Shown here: piece by piece, positions 18,088 to 29,527 of the stretch
Layout: each line of letters starts with the position of its first letter
Numbering within the stretch: the first letter of the stretch is position 1
DNA from: Cylindrospermopsis curvispora GIHE-G1
Lineage (GTDB): Bacteria; Cyanobacteriota; Cyanobacteriia; Cyanobacteriales; Nostocaceae
Assembly (NCBI RefSeq): GCF_014489415.1
Contig: NZ_CP060822.1
Coordinates: forward strand, 598,311-630,310
Length of the DNA stretch: 32,000 nt
Reading direction: 5' to 3'
Made by a program: the position numbers and the translations under genes
Notes under the pieces: model-generated
The model's database searches: none
What the model saw: only the letters and a program-made list of their open reading frames with translations
What the model was told of the DNA's origin: nothing

Positions 18088-18678
18088 ATGACTAGTCTTC
18101 GTGTTGGCCAACAGGCTCCCGATTTTACAGCCACAGCTGTGGTAGACCAGGAATTTAAGGCTGTCAAACTTGCTGAATATCGTGGCAAGTATGTGGTCTT
18201 GTTTTTCTATCCCTTGGATTTTACCTTTGTTTGCCCCACTGAGATCACAGCATTTAGCGATCGCTACGAAGAGTTTAAGAAATTGAACACAGAGGTATTA
18301 GGTGTTTCTGTGGATAGTGAATTTTCTCACTTGGCGTGGATTCAAACAGACCGCAAATCTGGTGGTGTTGGCGATTTAAACTATCCCCTGGTTTCGGATA
18401 TTAAAAAAGAAATTAGCAGTGCTTACAATGTTCTTGACCCCGATGCGGGTATTTCTTTGCGTGGTTTGTTTATCATTGACAAGGACGGGGTTATTCAACA
18501 CGCTACCATAAATAACTTGGCTTTTGGTCGCAGTGTGGATGAGACTTTGCGTACTTTGCAAGCAATTCAGCATGTACAATCACATCCAGATGAAGTTTGT
18601 CCAGCTGGCTGGCAACCGGGAGAAAAGACCATGATTCCCGATCCTGTGAAGTCCAAAGTGTACTTTGCAGCAGTATAG
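18088..18678 (+). CDS. typical 2-Cys peroxiredoxin
   Basis: Peroxidatic Cys in [14 protein letters not shown] and resolving Cys in EVCPAGW. Confidence 0.93.
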
Positions 18679-18688
18679 AGTAAAATAG

Positions 18689-18714
18689 ACCAGCGGAGGA
18701 ATTTTTCCGCTGGT
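18689..18714. terminator. bidirectional terminator hairpin between convergent genes
   Basis: Perfect 9-bp stem accagcgga/tccgctggt with an 8-nt loop. T-rich sequence follows on both strands. Confidence 0.6.
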
Positions 18715-18767: not shown

Positions 18768-19616
18768 TCACGGGATAGCGTTTCTCAATTGTTTAAGGGT
18801 ACGACCAATACCAACGAAACTTGCGTCTTGAGACAGACGTTTGAGAGTAGGTGGTTTACTTTCGATGACAATACCGTTGTAAGCAGTAATGGCAGCACTG
18901 AGCTTGTCAATGTTGACGCTAAATGCCGCACCCGCTTGTGCAACTGTATTATTACCTTTCCAATCCTTAGTGCTAACTAACATAGCACCGGGTGAAGATG
19001 CAGTAGAAGGTGAGAATAAACCATTCAGGGCATTAACAAGTGCGATCGCGAGCTGGGAACTAATACCCGCCGATGTTAAAGCTGCTGTTATTCTCGCAGC
19101 AGCTTCCGTTACCCCTGGTCGTGCAAGCACGAGGGTGACCAAGTCAGTAGTATTAGCGCTTGTGCCAAGCACTTGAACTATATTGGGAACTAGCTGGTTT
19201 AGGGCTGATTGAACTTCTTGTGTAACCGCTAGGGTTGCACTTTGCCCCTGTCTGGTTACAATTATGCTCTCTGCATTAGGTATGAAAGTGACACCGCTTC
19301 CACCACTAGAACCTCCTGGAGTTGTTTTCCCGGTTGGTGGTTGTACAGGATCTTCTGGGTTTGGTGGTTCCGGTTGTGGTTGTACAGGATCTTCTGGGTT
19401 TGGTGGTTCCGGTTGTGGTCGTTGTACAGGATCTTCTGGGTTTGGTGGTTCCGGTTGTGGTTGTACAGGATCTTGTGGAATTGATGGTGGTGAAGGCAAT
19501 ACATTTCCACTAGGACCTCCTGGTGTTGTGCTACCTCCCTCACTGGTCAATTGCAAAGATGCTAATAAGAACGGGACTAGACTTAAGGTAAAAATGAGAC
19601 TTTTGGGTTTTAACAT
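18768..19616 (-). CDS. secreted protein with a Pro-rich tandem repeat and an Ala/Ser/Thr-rich C-terminal domain
   Basis: Signal peptide MLKPKSLIFTLSLVPFLLASLQL, then PQPEPPNPEDPVQ repeats, then a ~180-aa domain I do not recognise. Confidence 0.65.
   Translation of the reverse strand: MLKPKSLIFTLSLVPFLLASLQLTSEGGSTTPGGPSGNVLPSPPSIPQDPVQPQPEPPNPEDPVQRPQPEPPNPEDPVQPQPEPPNPEDPVQPPTGKTTPGGSSGGSGVTFIPNAESIIVTRQGQSATLAVTQEVQSALNQLVPNIVQVLGTSANTTDLVTLVLARPGVTEAAARITAALTSAGISSQLAIALVNALNGLFSPSTASSPGAMLVSTKDWKGNNTVAQAGAAFSVNIDKLSAAITAYNGIVIESKPPTLKRLSQDASFVGIGRTLKQLRNAIP
19339..19478. repeat. 39-bp tandem repeat (one 42-bp unit), about 3.6 copies
   Basis: Units start at 19339, 19378, 19417 (with a +3 nt cgt insertion) and 19459, and are near identical. 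Confidence 0.9.
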
Positions 19617-19650
19617 GATGATTATCTAATAAACTATAGTACCTATGTAA

Positions 19651-20637
19651 TTACTTAGGTAAAAAATTGAACCCATAGCTGACGCTCAAAGAAAGTATGG
19701 TGCCACCAGGGCTATTATTAGTGATATCCGCACCCTGGGCTGTAATTGTTAAAGGTAAGGTAGGTATGGGAACATAGGAAGCACCAAGGTTAAAACCCAC
19801 TCCACTCCAACCGAAACCTACACCCAATTGGGGTTGAACCTGCATACCCACACTGCCAAACACACCTGTGCTAGCAAATTCTTGTCTAAACGGACCACCC
19901 CCAGCACCGAAAGAGACGGAGATAGGCATTTTATTAACTTCATCATCTGGCTGTAATAGGGAGTAACTAGTAACTACACCATAAACTCCAGAAGGGGTAA
20001 CACCATCAGTACCATACTGGGCAAAATAGTTCCAACCTGCAGCTACGGATACCTGGTTGTTACCCTGGGCATAGACAAGACGATGAACTTTCAGGTCAAA
20101 ACTACCATTGGCACCAAATTTTCTAATACTATTGTTGCTGAAGCCCAATTCCAAGGCAGCAAGTTTGTTAGAGTCCCCTATACCAGCGCCAAGGTTAATG
20201 CCGCCATCATACTGGCCATCTCTAAGTTTACCGGGGGTAGTACCTGTTATTCCTATAAACGCATCACCGGTATTAGCACCAAAAGCACTTACACCCGCAA
20301 AAGTAAGTCCGGGGGGATAGGTGGGCTTTTGCACCTCCCGTGGTTTGGTTTTTACCAGAGGTTCAATTAGCAATTCTTGCCGAATTCTTCTTACTTCTTC
20401 CGGACTGATATTCTCAGCTTGTGAAATCTGTGGGGGAACGGATCTGGTTTCGTAGCCATTCTGATTCGTAACACCCTCTTCCGCAAATACAAGATCTGGA
20501 GACAGTACCAAAGTTAAAAGGATACTGGGCAAGGTTAGGGAGATTGCTGAAAAAACTAAACCCCGGTGATTGTAACCTGATGTAAAATAAGGCTGTGTGC
20601 TGTTCAAAATATTACTCCTCACTGGACATTCTACCAT
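19651..20637 (-). CDS. putative outer-membrane beta-barrel protein
   Basis: Signal sequence, then a Gly/aromatic-rich region with alternating hydrophobic residues in short strands (SLSVSYGFNF, VSVAAGWNYF, GVGFGWSGVGFNLGASY). An aromatic residue lies near the C-terminus. Confidence 0.45.
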   Translation of the reverse strand: MVECPVRSNILNSTQPYFTSGYNHRGLVFSAISLTLPSILLTLVLSPDLVFAEEGVTNQNGYETRSVPPQISQAENISPEEVRRIRQELLIEPLVKTKPREVQKPTYPPGLTFAGVSAFGANTGDAFIGITGTTPGKLRDGQYDGGINLGAGIGDSNKLAALELGFSNNSIRKFGANGSFDLKVHRLVYAQGNNQVSVAAGWNYFAQYGTDGVTPSGVYGVVTSYSLLQPDDEVNKMPISVSFGAGGGPFRQEFASTGVFGSVGMQVQPQLGVGFGWSGVGFNLGASYVPIPTLPLTITAQGADITNNSPGGTILSLSVSYGFNFLPK

Positions 20638-20756
20638 AGTAAATGTTTGCCCGGCTATATTTTGTTGCTATAAACTTTTGCCTAGTGTATCATTAAATTA
20701 CCGGTTCATAAAACTCCTAGTTTTCGTATTTTTGTGATGTTGTTATTTACTTGGAG

Positions 20757-22283
20757 TTATGGTTTAGGTGTTGTTTCGGAATTGTTTGCTGCTGGAGAAG
20801 ATTTTTTGGTATAACGGCGTTCAAAAATTTCTGCGGATTTCTGATAGTCCACCAAGGCGGCTGAAAAATTCCCAGTCAGGGTGTATGCTGTAGCACGATT
20901 AATGTAGGCATTAAAATCATCTGGATCGATTATAATCGCTAAGGTTGATACCTTAATAGAAGCAGCGTAGTCCTTTAGATAGTTAAATACATCACTCTGA
21001 ATCGTATAACCATAACTGTTATTAGGGTCTAGACGAATAGCTTGTTTAGAAGATTCCAGTGCTGCTTGGTACTTACCCAGTTTAATGTAAGCCATACCTT
21101 GATGGGCATAAGCTATAGAATAACTGGGATTGAGCCGAATCGCGCGATTAAAATCCTCAAGAGCGGCCTGATCATTTTGTAACCAGATATAAGTCCAACC
21201 ACGATTCAGATAACCATCCAAATAATTTGGATCCAAGGCAATTACCTGGTTAAAGTCCAAAAGGGCTTCTTCGTATCTTCTAAGCCAACTGAGAGCATAT
21301 CCACGCTTGAAATAAGCTTCTGCATATTTGGGGTCAATTTTGATTGCCTGATCAAAATCATCTAGGGACTCTTTATAACTAAACTGGTCTAGCTTAGTAA
21401 TACCTCTGGCATAAAAATCTCGTGCAGATTGAGGAGAGTTTAAGCGCTGCTGTGGCACTTCCCCAGTGGCGGTGGTATTCCTTTGAATTGGTAGCTCTTT
21501 GAGCAAGGGGTTGTTGAAGTTCAAAAAAGTATTAATGGGAATGCCAGCATTAAATCCCGTTTTCTGTGATACTATTTCTCCCGTTTCTGTTTTACTCTTA
21601 TTCGAGGTGTCTGCTAACCCGTGAATTCCCACCACCCTACCCTTAATATCAAAAACTGGGCCCCCGCTATTACCGGTCAGAGTTATAGCATCGTAAATTA
21701 AACTATAACCATTGATAGAAGTTCTACCGCGAGAAAGAACGATCCCTTTAGTAAAACTGAAGTCCCGAGCTGACCCAATTTTAGTGAACACAGCTGGAAA
21801 TCCGCCCACAAATACATCGGATGCTTCTGTCATTTGGTCAGAATCACCTAAATTGGCTGTGGCATATTCCTGTGTAGCTACAAAGCTAACTAGGGCTAAA
21901 TCAGGATCATTTTTGGTTGACTGTAGGACTATAATGTCTTGTGATTTAATAGGGTATTCTTTGCCATCATTTGTTCTTACAGAATACGCAATGTCTTTAG
22001 CGCAGACGATTTTTCCAGGTCTGTCTATAATATCACAGACCACGTGATTGGCGGTTAGTACAGAATAACGATTACCTTGTTTGGCAATAATTACTCCTGA
22101 ACCACCAGGAGTAACGTCACCCTCCGTATTAATTTGTACAGATGTCTTCTTGGCAATTTGTGCTATATCTTGGATACTGATAGTATCAGCAGCTATTGAA
22201 GTAGTAGATAAAACAGCTGTTACAGCAGTTATAAGAGTTGTTGCTAGTAAGGAGTTATTTGTTATTCCAAGTTTAAAATTCAT
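20757..22283 (-). CDS. secreted trypsin-like (S1, Trypsin_2-type) serine protease fused to C-terminal TPR repeats
   Basis: Triad contexts TANHVV, DLALVSF and GNSGGPVFD. These are followed by about six TPR units (AEAYFKRGYAL, LDGYLNRGWTY, SIAYAHQGMAY ...). Confidence 0.8.
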   Translation of the reverse strand: MNFKLGITNNSLLATTLITAVTAVLSTTSIAADTISIQDIAQIAKKTSVQINTEGDVTPGGSGVIIAKQGNRYSVLTANHVVCDIIDRPGKIVCAKDIAYSVRTNDGKEYPIKSQDIIVLQSTKNDPDLALVSFVATQEYATANLGDSDQMTEASDVFVGGFPAVFTKIGSARDFSFTKGIVLSRGRTSINGYSLIYDAITLTGNSGGPVFDIKGRVVGIHGLADTSNKSKTETGEIVSQKTGFNAGIPINTFLNFNNPLLKELPIQRNTTATGEVPQQRLNSPQSARDFYARGITKLDQFSYKESLDDFDQAIKIDPKYAEAYFKRGYALSWLRRYEEALLDFNQVIALDPNYLDGYLNRGWTYIWLQNDQAALEDFNRAIRLNPSYSIAYAHQGMAYIKLGKYQAALESSKQAIRLDPNNSYGYTIQSDVFNYLKDYAASIKVSTLAIIIDPDDFNAYINRATAYTLTGNFSAALVDYQKSAEIFERRYTKKSSPAANNSETTPKP

Positions 22284-23095
22284 TTTTTCTGTTCTTGAAT
22301 AAAATTAACCACAGTAGCAATGGGGATAGCCCAACTTAAGGACTCGATTCTACGGTAATCTGCTTTGTTGGGTTTAGTTCCATCAGTAAAAATAAAGGCA
22401 TTAATACCTTGAAAGGGATACTTTAATAACCCACTGATACCAACAAGTTCCCCCCGTTGATTTAAAACGGGCCCTCCACTCATACCCTGAGTAAAATCAT
22501 TGGTGAAACCCACCTTATAACCACCAACTAGGGTTTTGCCGAGATACATCTTGATTTTACCCGCTTGTAGCTTGAAAGCGCCCAGTCCCCAATCCCGGGT
22601 TGTTTCTACTTTGGTGATAGTATCACCATTAAAAACAAAATGCCAAGCTGGAAACCCAGATACATACACCACTTCCCCCTCAGATATATTTGGTGACTGG
22701 GAAAACTGCACAGATTGATAGTTTTCCCCACTGGTAAATTCCACCAGTGCTAGGTCTAAAGAATGAGGATTGACTGTTGGTACTTGCTGTGCCTTGTAAA
22801 TCTTACCATCAGGTGTTAAAACTTCATAACCACTCTCAGGACTATCCACTACCACGTGATCATTAGTCAAAACCCTGTAGTTTTGTCCTTTACGGTCGAT
22901 AATCACTCCTGACCCAGATCCAGATTTAGTAAAAATTCTTACTGTTACTTTACTGGCAGTCCTGGCAGCGGCAAATTCAAATCCGGGATGGGGTGTGGAA
23001 GCTAGGAAGTTGGGTACAGTATGAGGATACACAATGGGGGAAAAAATTGTTGCCAGTAATGCCACAGAAAATCTAAAAGATATGGGGTAAAACAC
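22280..23095 (-). CDS. secreted trypsin-like serine protease
   Basis: Triad contexts TNDHVV, DLALVEF and GMSGGPVLN. The start is a GTG at 23095. The stop overlaps the next gene's start in ATGA (22280-22283). Confidence 0.72.
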   Translation of the reverse strand: MFYPISFRFSVALLATIFSPIVYPHTVPNFLASTPHPGFEFAAARTASKVTVRIFTKSGSGSGVIIDRKGQNYRVLTNDHVVVDSPESGYEVLTPDGKIYKAQQVPTVNPHSLDLALVEFTSGENYQSVQFSQSPNISEGEVVYVSGFPAWHFVFNGDTITKVETTRDWGLGAFKLQAGKIKMYLGKTLVGGYKVGFTNDFTQGMSGGPVLNQRGELVGISGLLKYPFQGINAFIFTDGTKPNKADYRRIESLSWAIPIATVVNFIQEQKK

Positions 23096-23149
23096 AGCGA
23101 TTCACTCAAAAAAGGAGCAGTTGATTGATTCTTGTCATTCGGGTAGAAT

Positions 23150-23767
23150 TTACAGTTTGAACCTCCGATCAGAGTTTGCTGGTGGTCTTATTTGGTCGGA
23201 ATCCTGGGGTTTTAGGTCATTTTGGTCGAGAACCTCACTTAATTCAAGTCGCAGACGACTGCTTGTTTCTCGGACAACACCTGCGCTGGAACCTTGTTTA
23301 CTAATTCCCGTCAGTTGCGCCAGAATCTCATTGGCTTTCTGAGCATTTTCTGGTTTAAGAGTAAACAAGAAATTCTGCGCATTACAACCTATTCTACTTG
23401 TTATAGAAGCTATACAAATAACCGTTTCATTGTTAACACGACCTTTAATTAGAGCTACATTTTTCAGACGACCACCATTTTGTTTCACAGCTCGATTAAA
23501 TTTAGGAGTTACCATTTGACAACGGTTTTGAGGAGTATAGTTATCTCCAAAATATTTAGAACCCGCGTCTGTCCAAGTAATTACGGTAATTGGACTACCA
23601 CCGGGACGCTGGCCAACCGTAGCCCAATTGCCATTGCCTTGGGAAACACATGTAAACTTGGTGCCATTGTAACTTTCAGTAGGGGGCTTAGCTTGTACCC
23701 CAGACTGAATCAAAGTTCCTGCTAGGGCTAAATTAGCAACTAGAACTGTCGTGGATAGTTTCATCAT
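23150..23767 (-). CDS. COP23-like secreted protein, paralog 1
   Basis: Signal peptide followed by a core I recognise as the COP23 (circadian oscillating polypeptide) family: YNGTKFTC...WATVGQRPGG..I..W......FG....P..RC..VT..FN.....GG.L.......G.....VIC........C....LFTLKPENA. The core has four conserved Cys. Confidence 0.7.
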   Translation of the reverse strand: MMKLSTTVLVANLALAGTLIQSGVQAKPPTESYNGTKFTCVSQGNGNWATVGQRPGGSPITVITWTDAGSKYFGDNYTPQNRCQMVTPKFNRAVKQNGGRLKNVALIKGRVNNETVICIASITSRIGCNAQNFLFTLKPENAQKANEILAQLTGISKQGSSAGVVRETSSRLRLELSEVLDQNDLKPQDSDQIRPPANSDRRFKL

Positions 23768-23797
23768 GCACCATTCCTTTTTCCCATTATAATTACT

Positions 23798-24493
23798 TTA
23801 CAAACCAGGTTGATTACGTCGGTTATTTTGAACTTTTGGCCTTTTAACAGGTGAAGAAGATGAGCGTCGAGCTGCTAGCACATCACTCAGTTTGACTGTA
23901 ACCCGTTGGCGACTACTTCTTGTTTCGGTAATCACACCTCCTTCCGATCCCTTCTTGCTAATCTCCAGGAGTTGAGATAAAACCTTATCAGGGTTTTTGG
24001 CATTTTCCGGTTTCAGGGTAAATAGGGTATTTTTATCTTGACAACCATTATCTCGGTCGGAAATTACACAAATAACAACCTGACCATTAACATTGCCACT
24101 GGTTAATAAAACATCTTGAAGCCTACCACCACTCTCTTGTACTGCTGTGTTGAACTTGCGGGTGACAATTTGGCACCGGTTTTCGGGGGCAAATTGGCTA
24201 CCAAAATATTTGGAAGCTGATTGAGTCCAAATAATCACAGGTATTGGTTGGCCACCAGGGCGCTGACCAACGGTAGCCCACTTGCCATTACCCTGGGATA
24301 CACAGGCAAATTTCGTCCCATTATAGCTTTCATCACCAGTCGGTTCTGAGTCTGATGGGTTGTCGGATGCAGGAATAGTGGGGGGGTTAGGGGGGTTATC
24401 TCCACTTTCCACTGGCACAGCTCTCACCATGCTAGGATGCCAACCGGCTGATACAGCTATAAGAGTAGCTAAAACTGTTGCTGAAAATTTCAT
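23798..24493 (-). CDS. COP23-like secreted protein, paralog 2
   Basis: Same core as paralog 1, with an added Pro/Asp/Ser-rich linker after the signal peptide. Confidence 0.7.
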   Translation of the reverse strand: MKFSATVLATLIAVSAGWHPSMVRAVPVESGDNPPNPPTIPASDNPSDSEPTGDESYNGTKFACVSQGNGKWATVGQRPGGQPIPVIIWTQSASKYFGSQFAPENRCQIVTRKFNTAVQESGGRLQDVLLTSGNVNGQVVICVISDRDNGCQDKNTLFTLKPENAKNPDKVLSQLLEISKKGSEGGVITETRSSRQRVTVKLSDVLAARRSSSSPVKRPKVQNNRRNQPGL

Positions 24494-24543
24494 ATATCCT
24501 GTTATTTTTTACCAAAGAAGTGTGAAAAGTTCTGAGTTTTCCA

Positions 24544-25200
24544 TCACAGGCCACCTGTAGTGGGTCTGGGAGTTTTGCGGGTTCTGGGTGTTTGTTGAGG
24601 CAAGCGCTTGGCTGCTTTGGAGATAACTTCACCTAGGTTTACTGTGGCACGAGAACGACCTCTTGTTTCAGTAATAACCCCTGCACTGGAACCTCTAATA
24701 CTAATTTGAGTCAGGGTTTCTAAAACCCTATTAGGGTCTTTGGCATTTTCGGGTTTCAGGGCAAACAGGGTATTGTTACCATCACAACCTCCTGTGTCCT
24801 TTAAAGAAAGTGCGCAAATAACAGTTTTGTCACCGACTTCTCCCCAGGTTAAAACTACGTCGTAAAGATTGCCAGCGCTATCTTCTACGGCTTGGTTGAG
24901 ATTGGCTGTGACGATTTCACAACGGCTCTTGGGATTATAATTTTCGCCAAAGGACTGTGCTCCTTTTTTTGTCCACACAATTATGGGAATTGGTCTACCA
25001 GCAGGGCGCTGTCCCACTGTGGCCCAGTTACTACCTTGAGCTACACAAGCAAATCTCGTCCCATTGTATTGACTGGGATCGCTCGGATCAAAGAATGCGT
25101 CATCAGATGATTGGGCTTTTAATTGACCATGTCCTAAACCCAAAATGCTTGATAGGGCTAGGGTAGCCACTAAAAATTTTGCTGAGAATTTGCTACTCAT
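24544..25200 (-). CDS. COP23-like secreted protein, paralog 3
   Basis: The start at MSSKFSAKF (ATG at 25200) is preceded by AAGGAGG. The ORF-track extension to 25275 runs through an intergenic hairpin. Confidence 0.72.
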   Translation of the reverse strand: MSSKFSAKFLVATLALSSILGLGHGQLKAQSSDDAFFDPSDPSQYNGTRFACVAQGSNWATVGQRPAGRPIPIIVWTKKGAQSFGENYNPKSRCEIVTANLNQAVEDSAGNLYDVVLTWGEVGDKTVICALSLKDTGGCDGNNTLFALKPENAKDPNRVLETLTQISIRGSSAGVITETRGRSRATVNLGEVISKAAKRLPQQTPRTRKTPRPTTGGL

Positions 25201-25241
25201 AATATCTCCATACCTCCTTATTTTTATTTTTTGCCGATGGC

Positions 25242-25268
25242 GCGTGGAAAGTTTTGGCTGTTCCACGC
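25242..25268 (-). other. intergenic stem-loop between COP23 paralogs 4 and 3
   Basis: Perfect 8-bp stem gcgtggaa/ttccacgc with an 11-nt loop. No U-tract follows on the transcribed strand. Confidence 0.4.
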
Positions 25269-25298
25269 CTTCCACACTTTTGCAATAGTTGCCAGTCC

Positions 25299-25958
25299 TT
25301 AAACAGAGCCTTTAGTTGATCTGGGAGTTTTGCGGGTCTTGGGTGTTTCTCGGGGCAAGCGTTTGGCCGCTTGCGATACAACCCTACCTAAGTTTACACT
25401 TAACCGACCTCTTGTTTTAGTTTCAGTAACAACCCCTGCACTAGAGCCTTTAATACTAATTTGAGTCAGGGTTTCTAAAACCTTATTAGGATCCTTGGCA
25501 TTTTCCGGTTTCAGCGCAAACAGAGTATTGCTACCATCACAACCTCCTTCGTCTTTTAAAGAAAGTGCGCAAATAACAGTTTTGCCATCATCAAGTTTAC
25601 CCCAGGTTAGGACTACGTCATAAAGATCACCAGCGCTGTCTTCCACTGCTTGGTTAAGATTGGCTGTGACGATTTCACAACGGCTCTTGGGATTATAATT
25701 TTCGCCAAAGGACTGTGCTCCTTTTTTTGTCCACACAATTATGGGAATTGGTTTACCGCCAGGGCGCTGTCCCACTGTGGCCCAGTTACTACCTTGGGCC
25801 ACACAGGTAAATTTAGTCCCATTGTATTGACTGCGATCGCTCGGATCAAAAAATTCATCATCTGATGATTGGGCTCTTAATTGACCATGTCCTAAACCCA
25901 AAATGCCTGATATAGCTAGGGTTGCTGCTAAAAACGCGGCTGAGAATTTGCTGTTCAT
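25299..25958 (-). CDS. COP23-like secreted protein, paralog 4
   Basis: Very similar to paralogs 3 and 5 at both protein and DNA level. Confidence 0.72.
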   Translation of the reverse strand: MNSKFSAAFLAATLAISGILGLGHGQLRAQSSDDEFFDPSDRSQYNGTKFTCVAQGSNWATVGQRPGGKPIPIIVWTKKGAQSFGENYNPKSRCEIVTANLNQAVEDSAGDLYDVVLTWGKLDDGKTVICALSLKDEGGCDGSNTLFALKPENAKDPNKVLETLTQISIKGSSAGVVTETKTRGRLSVNLGRVVSQAAKRLPRETPKTRKTPRSTKGSV

Positions 25959-26013
25959 AATGTCCCCTTGATCTAGTGTTGGTTTTAATGGTGAGATCTT
26001 GCTGGAGCAAAAT

Positions 26014-27237
26014 CTACAGGTTACCTGGTTTGGTGGGACGGGGGCCAGTTCTTAAAGCTCTGAGTGTGCCGGTAGTAGGATTGTACTCATAGGCCTTAGC
26101 GGTTAAGTCTGGGTGGGGACTGACACAATATTGTCTATCACCTATAAAGATGCCAATTACTGGAGTAGAGCTGCAGGAAACAGCTGTTAATTGCCATTTT
26201 CTTAACAGGGCTAAATTCGGGTCGTTGGATGATACTGGTTTCCTGTTCCCTGTAATTTGGATTCCATCTATTTCTACTTCACCTAAAATCCCTGAGTCGT
26301 CAATAGTATTGCCCAGTGCGGAAATGGCAACACCGGTTGTGGCGGCATTATAAATGTTGTAACGACCATTGTTGACGATAACATTGCCACCTGGATTACT
26401 CCGGGTGCCTAGATCGGGGGAAGAATTAAGAGTGATGACTATGCCATCCCGTTCGTTATTCTGAACCACATTGCCGCGTAACAAGGGTTGAGCTGAATCG
26501 GTGATCACTATTCCGTCTCTATTATTAGTGATTTGATTTTTGGTCAAGACTGGTGTGGAATCGTCATTAATGCTTAATCCAAAGCCACTCTTCTCAAATA
26601 CATTATTGCTGATTTTCCCCTTGCTGGATTTAGTTATGGAAATACCGTTGCCATTGTTTGCCGTAAATTGGTTGTTCTCAACGGTAGGATCCCCACCAGC
26701 TGTGACAAATATCCCCTCTCGCAAACTCTGAGCAAATGTGCTATTTTTAATAACTGGGTTAGTGGACTCTACCCATACACCTGTTCCTCTGGGATTTCTA
26801 TTAGTCACGGTTACACCGGCAATTGTGCTGTCTTGTTCTGCCAGAATTGTCACATTTTGTTTGGCAAAACTACGACTGTTGTAGTCACCACCACCGGAAA
26901 TAACTACGGTCTTTCCTTTAGTAGATTCATCACCACGCAAGGTGACCCCCTGTTTAATTGTGAGGGGGAAGGACTCATTACTGTAACTACCTGGAGCTAA
27001 CTGAATTATGGTTCCCGGTTGGGCTTGCTCTAAGGCAAAGGTAATAGTTTTGTAGGGTTTTGCTCCGGAGTTACCAGTGTTTACAACGTTAACGCCATTA
27101 ATGGGATCTACATAGATAACTGGCGCCACTGGAGGCAATTGAGCGCCCACGGGAAGTGTAACTGACAAAGAACCGCAGATGGTCAGGGTTGCCATAACTA
27201 CGGAAGATTTTAGATGTGATTTTGATTTAATGTTCAT
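26014..27237 (-). CDS. secreted right-handed parallel beta-helix protein (DUF1565-like)
   Basis: Signal peptide, then IYVDP..G....GS...PYKTITFALEQAQPGTIIQLAPGSY...FPL.I..GVTLRG. This is followed by repeated NN/GI.I beta-helix rungs (NNGNGISI, NNRDGIVIT, NNERDGIVIT). Confidence 0.75.
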   Translation of the reverse strand: MNIKSKSHLKSSVVMATLTICGSLSVTLPVGAQLPPVAPVIYVDPINGVNVVNTGNSGAKPYKTITFALEQAQPGTIIQLAPGSYSNESFPLTIKQGVTLRGDESTKGKTVVISGGGDYNSRSFAKQNVTILAEQDSTIAGVTVTNRNPRGTGVWVESTNPVIKNSTFAQSLREGIFVTAGGDPTVENNQFTANNGNGISITKSSKGKISNNVFEKSGFGLSINDDSTPVLTKNQITNNRDGIVITDSAQPLLRGNVVQNNERDGIVITLNSSPDLGTRSNPGGNVIVNNGRYNIYNAATTGVAISALGNTIDDSGILGEVEIDGIQITGNRKPVSSNDPNLALLRKWQLTAVSCSSTPVIGIFIGDRQYCVSPHPDLTAKAYEYNPTTGTLRALRTGPRPTKPGNL

Positions 27238-27252
27238 AATGTTCCTAAATGA

Positions 27253-27326
27253 CTCCCTAATTTTGTTGTGTACATCCCAGAGAAAATTGACTAGGGTTTA
27301 ATTGTGAAAGTTCCCGATGCTGATGA
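27253..27326 (-). promoter_or_regulatory. conserved upstream element, copy A (5' of the beta-helix gene)
   Basis: Aligns without internal gaps to 28083-28155 at about 75% identity by my hand count. Exact blocks: taatttt, tacatcc, ctagggtttaa, gctgatga. Confidence 0.35.
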
Positions 27327-27417
27327 CTTATAGTACACTAGTACGGAGTGTGGAGGATTTGGTTTCTAAAGCGGTTCTATAATTTTTACTGCTGGCCATT
27401 TTGTTACCAACTGTGCG

Positions 27418-28077
27418 TCACAGAGTACCTTTAGTGGGTCTATTTACGGGAGTTGTGCGAGTTTTGGGTGTTTGTTGAGGCAATCGCTTGGCTGCTTGTG
27501 AGACAACTTTACCTAGGTTTACACTCAAACGACCTGTTGTTTCACGAACAGTCCCTGCACTAGAACCCTTAATACTAATTTGAGTCAGGGTTTCTAAAAC
27601 CCTGTTAGGGTTCTTGGCATTTTCGGGTTTCAGCGCAAACAGGGTATTGTTACCATCACAACCTCCTTCATCCTTTAAAGAAAGTGCGCAAATAACAGTT
27701 TTGCCATCAGTAAGTTTACCCCAGGTTAAGACTACGTCGTAAAGATTACCAGCACTATCTTCTACCGCTTGGTTGAGGTTAGCTGTAACTAGTTCACAAC
27801 GGCTCTTGGGATTATAATTTTCGCCAAAGGACTGTGCTCCTTGTTTTGTCCACACAATTATGGGAATTGGTCTACCACCGGGGCGCTGTCCTACTGTGGA
27901 CCAGTCGCTACCTTGGGCTACACAGGTAAATTTAGTTCCGTTATATTGACTGGGATCGCTGGGATCAAAGAATGCGTCATCTGATGATTGGGCTTTTAAT
28001 TGACCATGTTCTAAACCCAAAATGCCTGATAGGGCTAGGGTTGCTACTAAAACTGTGGCTGAGAATTTGCTGTTCAT
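27418..28077 (-). CDS. COP23-like secreted protein, paralog 5
   Basis: The start at MNSKFSAT (ATG at 28077) is preceded by AGGAG. It has the same core as paralogs 3 and 4. Confidence 0.72.
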   Translation of the reverse strand: MNSKFSATVLVATLALSGILGLEHGQLKAQSSDDAFFDPSDPSQYNGTKFTCVAQGSDWSTVGQRPGGRPIPIIVWTKQGAQSFGENYNPKSRCELVTANLNQAVEDSAGNLYDVVLTWGKLTDGKTVICALSLKDEGGCDGNNTLFALKPENAKNPNRVLETLTQISIKGSSAGTVRETTGRLSVNLGKVVSQAAKRLPQQTPKTRTTPVNRPTKGTL

Positions 28078-28082
28078 AATAT

Positions 28083-28155
28083 CTCCTAATTTTATTCCGT
28101 ACATCCTAGCAAGAAACTGCTAGGGTTTAAGTATGAAAATGCCTGACGCTGATGA
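28083..28155 (-). promoter_or_regulatory. conserved upstream element, copy B (5' of COP23 paralog 5)
   Basis: Homologous to 27253-27326, as described for copy A. Confidence 0.35.
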
Positions 28156-28368
28156 TTTTTACTGACTCAACCGCAAACTATTATATACTGCTGCTCTGAC
28201 CTTTACTACAAAGGCACCTCTTATATTTACTGAACCCGCCCAGGGAGATGACAAGGACTTATCACCTACAAACAAAAAGTCTTTTAACTAGCATCTAATA
28301 TTGTACTATGCGTGAATTTACTCCGTCAAGAGTAAAAAGTAGAAAATTTAGCATTTTCTACTTTCCTC

Positions 28369-28560
28369 ATGGCATACATACCACTTGAGAAAAGCGGTCG
28401 AATTTCTGGGATTGCATCCAAACACTTTGAGGAGATATGCAGATGAGGGGAAAATCAAAAGCATTAAAAACCCAGCAGGGCAAAGATTGTATATGTGGAA
28501 TCTTATGTCAGGGGTGATTCAATTAGAACTCCCACTATTTGCTACTGTGGGTGAGCTAGA
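28369..28560 (+). pseudogene. frameshifted N-terminal remnant of an IS607-type serine recombinase (TnpA)
   Basis: The reading MAYIP / LRKAVEFLGLHPNTLRRYADEGKIKSIKNPAGQRLY / VESYVRGDSIRTPTICYCG* has to be assembled from three frames. It comprises a MerR-like HTH plus the start of the CYCRVSS catalytic region. No TnpB or remaining recombinase sequence follows. Confidence 0.6.
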
Positions 28561-28561
28561 A

Positions 28562-29527
28562 TCAGAATTTAATTTGCTGTAAATGAGCACGAGGATCATA
28601 ACTACGGATAGCACGCAGTTTCTCGTAATATTCCCGCTCTTGGGGAGTGGGGTCTTTAGGGGGTACAATGGCAATTTTTACCAACTGGTCACCACGACCG
28701 CCCTTGGGTAGGGGCCATCCCTTACCACGTAAGCGCAGAGACTGACCAGAACGCACTCCTGCGGGTAATTTTACGCTGGCATGACCATCAGGTGTGGGAA
28801 CCTGGATGGTCGCACCTAAAGCTGCTTCGTCTGGTGCGATTGGCACTTCGCAAATTAGTTGGTCACCTTCAAGTTGAAAAAATGAATGGGGTGATAGTTC
28901 TGTCTTTAAATATAAATCTCCCCTTTGTCCACTCTTAGGGTTAACTGCACCTTTACCTCTCACCCGTAAACGAGTGCCAGTTTTTGCCCCTGCGGGAATA
29001 CGCACTTCAATGGTTTCATTTCCTAAACTGAATCGTTTTTGCACTCCTGCAAATGCCTCGGCGAAGCTTAGGGTAATGACAAATTCACTATCTTGGGCAC
29101 CCATATCCGGAAAACCAAAGTCTCCAAAACCACCAAAACCACTGGGTCTACCACCGGACCGAGAAGAAGTTGAGCTGCGAGGTCCTACCCCACCAAATAA
29201 ATCATTGAGGAAATCATTAAAACTGCCGTATTGACCAAAGTCAAAACCACTCATATCTACTCCCGCACCACCAGGAAAACCGCCTTCTCCTACTTGTTTC
29301 CAATATTGACCATATTGGTCATATTTTTTCCGTTTATCTGGATCCGAGAGAACTTCATAGGCTTCATTAATCTCTTTGAATCTTGCTTCAGCTTGTTTAT
29401 TTCCAGGATTAACGTCCGGGTGGTATTTACGAGCTAGTTTGCGAAAAGCTTGTTTAATTTCTTCTGGACTGGCAGTTTTACTGATTCCTAAAATTGAATA
29501 ATAGTCTTTAAAATCGGTTCCAGCCAT
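28562..29527 (-). CDS. DnaJ-class co-chaperone lacking the zinc finger (CbpA/DnaJ2-like)
   Basis: J-domain [35 protein letters not shown], a G/F-rich linker, and C-terminal substrate-binding domains. There is no CxxCxGxG repeat. Confidence 0.88.

Follow-up and report, generated by a model that had tools for sequence, protein, structure and literature searches.

COP23 has been described as a membrane-associated circadian protein of cyanobacteria, with its function unassigned. As summarised in bioRxiv 10.64898/2026.04.23.720389, the founder of the family (PF14218), from Synechococcus/Cyanothece RF-1 (Rippkaea orientalis), is membrane-peripheral, and its abundance follows from rhythmic synthesis together with light- and Ca2+-dependent degradation; regulated degradation of this kind implies a specific protease. 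In recent studies of UCYN-A (the nitroplast lineage) and of diatom spheroid bodies, COP23 ranks near the top of the genes by expression or by strength of regulation. No transcript of UCYN-A differs more strongly between light and dark (PMC6315102), and COP23 is nitrogen-responsive in Epithemia diazoplasts and in Anabaena, where Alr2313 is called a COP23 homolog (bioRxiv 10.64898/2026.04.23.720389). Alr2313 is present in the Anabaena exoproteome (PMC4390845), and no gene is more strongly down-regulated in a sigG mutant (PMC4390870). Here we analyse a stretch of 32,000 nt from Cylindrospermopsis curvispora GIHE-G1 (NZ_CP060822.1, positions 598,311 to 630,310), hereafter the window, in which five COP23 genes and two genes for S1 (trypsin-like) proteases lie in one block on the minus strand. 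In the searchable literature, subscription-only titles being outside its coverage, we found no paper that connects COP23 with proteases, tetratricopeptide repeats (TPR) or DUF1565; the COP23 papers in it mention neither a linkage to proteases nor a C-terminal tag, and no description of a system of such composition was found, in line with the claim of an earlier note on this DNA.

Four kinds of described system come close to this locus. The first is the HtrA group (HtrA, DegP, DegQ and DegS; MEROPS S1C), with which the two proteases share a predicted exported Trypsin_2-type domain and a His-Asp-Ser triad, and whose members DegP, DegQ and HtrA provide the nearest solved structures by sequence matches to the PDB. 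Classical members of the group read the hydrophobic free C-termini of their substrates or activators, and the proteins co-encoded with the proteases here carry a hydrophobic C-terminal tag. Unlike HtrA, both proteases lack a PDZ domain, one has TPR instead and in other genera also a two-Cys mini-domain, and the two form a dedicated pair that is encoded with a specific partner family, COP23. The second is Prc (Tsp)-NlpI-MepS of E. coli, where a TPR protein hands a specific periplasmic or peptidoglycan-associated protein over to a protease that reads C-terminal tails. The likeness is one of analogy: the TPR region here matches NlpI weakly (E 8e-14, far below the cut-off), the protease is of type S1 and not S41, the TPR is fused to it and is not a separate lipoprotein, and COP23, the presumed substrate, is unrelated to MepS. 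The third comprises the C-terminal sorting systems PEP-CTERM/exosortase, LPXTG/sortase and GlyGly-CTERM/rhombosortase, which likewise combine an extreme C-terminal motif after a low-complexity spacer, unrelated exported proteins that bear it, and a co-encoded protease. In contrast to these, the motif here is the free C-terminus with neither a transmembrane helix nor a basic anchor behind it, and the protease is a soluble S1 enzyme rather than a membrane transpeptidase. The last is the COP23 founder itself; the five paralogs of the window are clear members of its family, with a signal-peptide-like leader and the four invariant Cys, and differ from it in forming a five-copy array with basic C-terminal tails in a heterocystous filamentous species.

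Ten minus-strand open reading frames (ORFs) of at least 60 aa, the size counted, lie between 18768 and 28104 (coordinates are positions in the window). The earlier note had counted eleven genes, and the intergenic gaps yield nothing credible for another one, only unsupported ORFs below 40 aa. In the direction of transcription the order is COP23-A, the DUF1565 beta-helix gene, COP23-B, -C, -D and -E, the short S1 protease, the S1 protease-TPR fusion, ORF9 and ORF10. The first eight are:

27418..28077, minus strand: COP23-A, 219 aa from MNSKF, in an ORF that may extend to 28104 (PF14218, E 1.2e-24).
26014..27237, minus strand: DUF1565 right-handed beta-helix protein, 407 aa (PF07602, E 2.5e-38; Beta_helix, E 6e-23, 81.6 bits).
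25299..25958, minus strand: COP23-B, 219 aa (PF14218, E 3.9e-24).
24544..25200, minus strand: COP23-C, 218 aa from MSSKF, in an ORF that may extend to 25275, ending in ...TTGGL (PF14218, E 2.2e-26).
23798..24493, minus strand: COP23-D, 231 aa (PF14218, E 1.6e-32).
23150..23767, minus strand: COP23-E, 205 aa (PF14218, E 2.1e-29).
22280..23095, minus strand: short S1 protease, HtrA-like and PDZ-less, 271 aa (Trypsin_2, E 2.8e-22).
20757..22283, minus strand: S1 protease-TPR fusion, 508 aa (Trypsin_2, E 1.5e-21; TPR_1, E 3.9e-35).

A Pfam search of every ORF, the check that the earlier note had proposed, recovered all the families named there: five COP23 paralogs (85-113 bits against a cut-off of 27), a DUF1565-like beta-helix protein (132 bits against 20.3) and two Trypsin_2 proteases, the second with TPR. 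The intergenic distances are short as stated, from -4 to 180 bp. The statement that all the ORFs carry signal sequences holds for the hydrophobic N-terminal segment, which is present in 10 of 10 (maximum KD(12) 1.9-2.5), and less well for two details. An A-x-A-like cleavage site, judged by eye, is found in eight, the site of ORF10 is uncertain, and the leader of the short protease is atypical, with a GTG start and no basic n-region. All ten products are nevertheless predicted to be exported, their leaders being compatible with a Sec signal peptide.

The two proteases are paralogs with 33% identity, and their genes overlap by 4 bp. Over 96% of its length the short one shows 100% identity to a C. 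curvispora protein. In the fusion the protease is encoded at about 21474-22166 and the TPR at about 20814-21446. H80, D114 and S206 of the short protease are invariant in 13 orthologs, and the H80/D128/S206 motifs of the fusion are conserved in its orthologs; with triads intact, both enzymes are predicted to be catalytically competent. Neither has a Pfam match to a PDZ domain, and the NCBIfam models for HtrA, DegP and DegS stay far below their cut-offs (20-60 bits against 400-800 for HtrA/DegP), matching the protease domain alone. Classical HtrA membership was therefore rejected, on the missing PDZ and on these low scores. The TPR module resembles generic peptide-binding arrays such as those of OGT, TOM70, Hop and PEX5.

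Conservation of the neighbourhood was assessed through 12 exact-protein look-ups, which are a sample and not a genome-wide census; L-numbers denote the loci compared, and P-numbers below denote proteins from a COP23 profile search. A scan of genome contigs with the alignment of the five paralogs used patterns that proved too strict, and it returned one locus, that of Raphidiopsis brookii D9. A COP23 gene lies immediately upstream of an S1 protease gene in eight of nine look-ups anchored on COP23, counting an S1 ORF cut by the contig end in L013, and in all three anchored on a protease, across several orders. In R. brookii D9 (L001) the order of the block is retained through the TPR protease, and the metagenomic relative L008, 93-98% identical, has the whole block minus COP23-A. 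Sphaerospermopsis (L002) and Dolichospermum (L003) have the DUF1565 gene, two COP23 genes, the protease gene or genes and then the peroxiredoxin gene of the window; in Dolichospermum the TPR-bearing protease stands alone with no second protease. The series COP23, Trypsin_2, Trypsin_2 with TPR is found in Sphaerospermopsis, Oscillatoria acuminata, Pleurocapsales LEGE 06147, Stanieria NIES-3757 and Phormidium yuhuli. In Synechocystis PCC 7509 and three further metagenome or draft contigs the second protease is without a recorded TPR or is missing, so that the TPR module of the earlier note, present here and frequent, is not universal among the clusters. A COP23 gene of Nostoc sphaeroides is followed 500 bp downstream by an S1-like ORF that the contig end cuts.

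The core is thus found in Nostocales, Oscillatoriales, Pleurocapsales and Chroococcidiopsis-like genomes, set among unrelated flanking genes that differ from locus to locus. As judged from these comparisons, the conserved core is COP23, an S1 protease and a second S1 protease that usually bears TPR. The earlier idea of one conserved unit of ten or eleven genes does not hold, since ORF9 and ORF10 are missing in Sphaerospermopsis and Dolichospermum and the DUF1565 gene goes with the core in the examined Nostocales relatives only. What the window contains is not an eleven-gene system; it is a widespread module of COP23 with dual S1 proteases and variable accessories, here with five COP23 genes. 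In Arthrospira platensis, RNA sequencing found the consecutive genes RS07465 (COP23), RS07460 and RS07455 (serine proteases) all downregulated, with near-equal fold changes and among just 21 differentially expressed genes, a linkage on which the authors do not comment (PMC13114239). Adjacency and this co-regulation support the dedicated envelope system proposed in the earlier note as far as COP23 and the proteases are concerned, and not for the whole block. It is very likely that COP23 and the protease pair are functionally linked.

Alternatively, the ten genes could be neighbouring genes for exported proteins that have no common function and adjoin through shared ancestry or chance. Such a view finds some room in ORF9, ORF10 and the DUF1565 gene, which are not universally linked to the core. 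Nevertheless, the adjacency of COP23 and protease outlasts, across orders, the replacement of every flanking gene, the families are connected with each other by fusions, by a shared mini-domain and by a shared tag, and the core genes respond together in Arthrospira (PMC13114239). For the core, the comparative data largely refute the absence of a common function, and we regard it as very improbable.

The shared tag lies at the extreme C-terminus. In a set of 150 COP23 representatives (50% non-redundant), the last residue of 111 is I, F, L, W or Y, in most cases preceded by Gly, Ser or Asn. Among 120 close homologs from Nostocales, 116 terminate in Gly-Leu or Gly-x-Leu. A similar ending is found on accessory proteins and on many proteases of the clusters: 27 of 49 cluster proteins have a Gly-hydrophobic end, compared with 7 of the 88 remaining long ORFs of these loci (Fisher p 2e-9, an optimistic value, as the proteins are not independent). 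The last residue agrees within clusters, being L in the window, L002, L003 and L004, F in L012 and L017, and I or V in L014. The tails end directly in Gly-x-hydrophobic without a hydrophobic helix, and several cluster members lack the tag.

The mini-domain was recognised at the end of the beta-helix protein:

26053..26223, minus strand: two-Cys mini-domain of about 55 residues (339-395) at the C-terminus of the beta-helix protein, with the tail ...KPGNL behind it.

Its pattern is W.L....C....V.I.I.G..YC..P..L....Y.Y.....L.P, and no Pfam family covers residues 339-395 of the beta-helix protein. A hidden Markov model built from seven copies, that of the window included, matches proteins outside the seed with E values from 1e-7 to 1e-22, namely the S1-TPR proteases of L004, L007 and L011 and accessory proteins of L014 and L017. 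The TPR proteases of Sphaerospermopsis, Oscillatoria, Stanieria and Pleurocapsales carry the mini-domain at the C-terminus or C-terminal to the TPR, and one to three copies are present in the proteins encoded first in the Oscillatoria, L014 and L017 clusters, which are otherwise unrelated. The TPR protease of the window has lost it.

The beta-helix protein (identical to QNP30074.1) has four parallel beta-helix repeats by TIGR03804, and a PDB sequence search with it gave no significant match. Its gene stands at the equal position in L001, L002, L003 and L008 and accompanies the core solely in the Nostocales relatives examined; it is a lineage-specific accessory at the head of the cluster. The mini-domain and natural DUF1565-COP23 fusions (P0286 and P0347) tie it to the core all the same, and these fusions indicate that the beta-helix gene belongs functionally with COP23, lineage-restricted as its linkage is.

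These elements can be assembled into a mechanism. The module would consist of at least one exported COP23 protein encoded directly upstream of paired exported, PDZ-less HtrA-like proteases, and the proteases would be dedicated enzymes that process or degrade COP23 and so set its level in the periplasm or cell envelope. Docking would involve two elements. One would be the C-terminal tag, made up of a Pro-rich spacer, Gly or other small residues and a hydrophobic last residue with its free carboxylate, and carried by COP23, by the accessory first-gene protein and often by the proteases. The other would be the mini-domain common to the accessory protein and the TPR protease. Reading of C-terminal tails, the task of PDZ in classical HtrA, would fall to the TPR module. 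The core of this genome is expanded to five COP23 paralogs, with the DUF1565 beta-helix accessory in front. The system would then be one of dedicated envelope proteolysis, of HtrA or adaptor type. We favour this mechanism, which agrees with the abundance of COP23 and with its regulated degradation as reported, and we give docking of the proteases on COP23, followed by its processing or degradation, a probability of about 0.45. The stronger version, a tag-dependent envelope system in which a co-varying Gly-Gly-hydrophobic-COOH tag and a docking mini-domain, distributed over COP23, accessories and proteases, are read by the PDZ-less protease pair, is more speculative and on the doubtful side. 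There is a reasonable chance that the logic of tag and mini-domain is new.

Several points weigh against this mechanism. Gene adjacency is silent on which partner acts on which, and five COP23 proteins for two proteases fit substrates, but also decoys or regulators. Export is predicted from a hydrophobicity heuristic, and the short protease has the atypical leader. Both proteases of the window are without the C-terminal tag, and its TPR protease is without the mini-domain. The clusters L014 and L017 are free of TPR and carry the tag, and therefore the TPR is not a universal reader. The cluster proteins are paralogous or orthologous, and the Fisher test hence overstates their independence. A COP23 gene in L016 has no linkage to a protease, and the COP23 locus of RF-1 itself lies outside the look-up sample.

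COP23 is built from a leader, a 140-residue domain with four Cys, a low-complexity spacer and the short terminal motif. A comparison of 79 diverse members shows the four Cys and a single Trp to be invariant. In the AlphaFold2 model of COP23-D, the paralog nearest to the Sphaerospermopsis and Dolichospermum genes, core residues 60-180 have a pLDDT (predicted local distance difference test) above 90. Nothing in the PDB matches this model by Foldseek (best E 0.29), and a PDB sequence search with COP23 gave no significant match either. A known inhibitor fold, ecotin-like or other, was considered for COP23 and rejected for want of structural or sequence similarity.

Hydrophobic C-terminal peptides of outer-membrane proteins activate DegS. 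COP23 could by analogy regulate or inhibit the co-encoded proteases, its hydrophobic free C-terminus acting like those peptides on an HtrA- or DegS-type enzyme, and the two families would then form cognate protease/inhibitor or protease/activator pairs in the periplasm. The strict gene order with COP23 immediately upstream, and the 1:1 order COP23-S1-COP23-S1 in PCC 7509 and L015, resembles and suggests cognate pairs, and a compact domain with four invariant Cys, probably disulfide-bonded, is shared with many secreted inhibitors. By Foldseek, on the other hand, the modelled fold shows no similarity to any solved inhibitor or other structure. COP23 is reported to be one of the most abundant transcripts or proteins and itself rhythmically degraded, as would be expected of a substrate or structural protein rather than of a stoichiometric inhibitor; moreover, the window has five COP23 for two proteases, and COP23 genes without a neighbouring protease exist. 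Regulation of the proteases by COP23 therefore seems unlikely to us.

Beyond the clusters, the family was surveyed by a profile search of 1.8 billion representative proteins, which found 747 COP23 proteins, mostly stand-alone and about 200 aa long (most of the 150 representatives have about 160-270 aa). The 2428-aa protein P0254, with 26 partial matches to the profile, looks like a low-complexity tandem repeat, and its matches were treated as spurious. Among longer proteins, COP23 is fused with PG_binding_1 (two such domains in P0342), with Fasciclin, and with a transmembrane segment, a coiled coil and GUN4 (P0271). A TPR-GUN4 gene also follows directly after the cluster of R. brookii D9 (L001 14293-15192, minus strand); the occurrence of GUN4 twice near COP23 may reflect a connection with signalling or tetrapyrroles, or coincidence. 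In L016 (5001-7778) the protease-free COP23 gene lies directly upstream of MurT/GatD-like peptidoglycan amidation genes, and this neighbourhood together with the PG_binding_1 fusion points to a possible peptidoglycan-associated location of COP23. In Synechocystis sp. PCC 7509 a gene for a porin with SLH and OprB domains comes directly after the COP23/protease cluster (L005 12909-14672).

Such associations lend themselves to another explanation, in which tag and mini-domain direct COP23, and with it the accessory protein (beta-helix, PPC or other), towards a site at the peptidoglycan or outer membrane, and the proteases are maturases that remove the tag or a linker and not degraders; COP23 would then be structural or ligand-binding. 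The tag is found on several unrelated families per cluster and co-varies by cluster, and the fusions, the MurT/GatD neighbourhood, the OprB porin after the PCC 7509 cluster, the possible barrel ORF9 after that of the window and the exoproteome record of Alr2313 (PMC4390845) agree with an envelope site, as does the finding of DUF1565 proteins in cyanobacterial vesicle or envelope fractions (PMC11635480). However, the tag is followed by no transmembrane helix and no known sorting-signal architecture, unlike in PEP-CTERM or LPXTG proteins. No sortase- or exosortase-type membrane transpeptidase is encoded in the loci examined, the incomplete distribution of the tag within clusters does not suit sorting, and HtrA-like enzymes are typically degradative. 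Assembly or sorting as the purpose of the module is thus improbable in our estimate, and degradation or processing of COP23 by the protease pair remains the preferred account.

The number of COP23 genes is itself variable. COP23-A and the beta-helix gene are each preceded by a copy of one leader of about 70 nt, a duplication where L008 has a single copy:

28078-28152 and 27238-27322, minus strand: duplicated leader CATCAGC...AAACCCTAG...AAAATTAGGAG, with no Rfam match.

L008 has neither COP23-A nor the second leader copy, which marks COP23-A as recently inserted or duplicated, in a position between promoter and beta-helix gene; the COP23 copy number is therefore in flux. In R. brookii D9 the orthologs of COP23-D and of the S1-TPR protease are each split into two overlapping ORFs (L001 10001-10776 and 12376-13897), which indicates frameshifts, by pseudogenisation or by draft-assembly errors. 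Transposase genes lie immediately upstream of COP23 in Oscillatoria (IS66-type, L004 7668-9119), where the transposase separates COP23 from the mini-domain accessory gene, and in Phormidium yuhuli (DDE_5/DDE_Tnp_1, L012 4855-6000).

Two signals frame the block:

28300..28329, minus strand: sigma70-like promoter TTGACG-18-TACAAT, a 10/12 match, upstream of the block.
18689..18714, minus strand: terminator-like hairpin with a 9-bp stem and 6 GC pairs, in the gap that separates ORF10 from the convergent peroxiredoxin gene.

Two relatives, L008 and R. brookii (L001), share the promoter sequence, which in L008 is directly upstream of the beta-helix gene. The hairpin (18714-18689) is the sole minus-strand terminator-like site within an intergenic gap of the block. 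These signals are consistent with one operon, and the block is probably transcribed from one promoter in this genome. Sites for NtcA (GTA-N8-TAC) were sought because COP23 homologs are reported to be nitrogen-responsive; none is present in the promoter or leader regions, and their number in the whole window equals that expected by chance. No Rfam family was found anywhere in the window.

Just upstream of the promoter, a divergent ORF of 65 aa with a MerR-type helix-turn-helix (28385-28582, plus strand; PF00376, E 1.8e-8) overlaps the 3' end of dnaJ by 21 nt. The spacer that holds it is much shorter in L008, and its sequence differs in L008 and L001; for this reason the ORF is probably a remnant, for instance of an IS607-like element or an excisionase, and not a conserved regulator. 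On the other side, genes for AhpC/TSA peroxiredoxins flank the cluster in the window (18088-18678, plus strand), in Sphaerospermopsis (L002 13627-14919) and in Dolichospermum (L003 12611-13797), and in Oscillatoria acuminata such a gene lies three genes upstream of the cluster (L004 5334-5888). This proximity could be retained synteny or a weak functional association.

The block ends with two genes that stand apart from the core:

19651..20637, minus strand: ORF9, Gly/aromatic-rich, predicted exported and all-beta, a putative outer-membrane barrel; no family match.
18768..19616, minus strand: ORF10, predicted exported, with a Pro-rich repeat of 13 residues and a C-terminal region rich in Ala; follows ORF9.

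Neither matches a Pfam or NCBIfam family. ORF9 is identical to QNP30068.1 and ORF10 to QNP30067.1, and in Cylindrospermopsis and Raphidiopsis both are annotated as hypothetical proteins. ORF9 gave no significant match to PDB sequences; its single-sequence AlphaFold2 model is all-beta and unreliable (pLDDT 34), and in its conserved C-terminus, ...SYGFNFLPK, the aromatic residue is not terminal. The position of the PCC 7509 porin after its cluster offers an analogy to that of this possible barrel. The Pro-rich repeat that had been noticed in ORF10 is borne out, with a 39-nt period and 3.7 copies at 19330-19478. Homologs of ORF10 follow those of ORF9 in L008, L009 and L010, and the occurrences of the pair include two short metagenome contigs whose ends leave the surroundings beyond view; in Sphaerospermopsis and Dolichospermum it is missing from the matching position. 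ORF9 and ORF10 form a separate pair restricted to Cylindrospermopsis/Raphidiopsis and close relatives, outside the conserved core. The pair is best regarded as a passenger or add-on of this lineage that may be co-transcribed with the module.

The strong oscillation of COP23 in cyanobacteria has been known since the 1990s, and the protein is still without an assigned function. Its conserved, co-regulated pairing with two predicted-exported, triad-intact proteases is the first concrete mechanistic handle on the family, and the shared tag, the shared mini-domain and the fusions to peptidoglycan-binding, DUF1565 and GUN4 domains offer further ones. For the reported regulated degradation of COP23 the proteases are candidate effectors, with the tag as a candidate for the degron or for a docking site. 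Envelope proteolysis of the HtrA type gains a PDZ-less branch that bears TPR. If the proposed mechanism is true, a tag-reading protease pair that controls the abundance or maturation of COP23 would explain its rhythmic, light- and Ca2+-dependent degradation.

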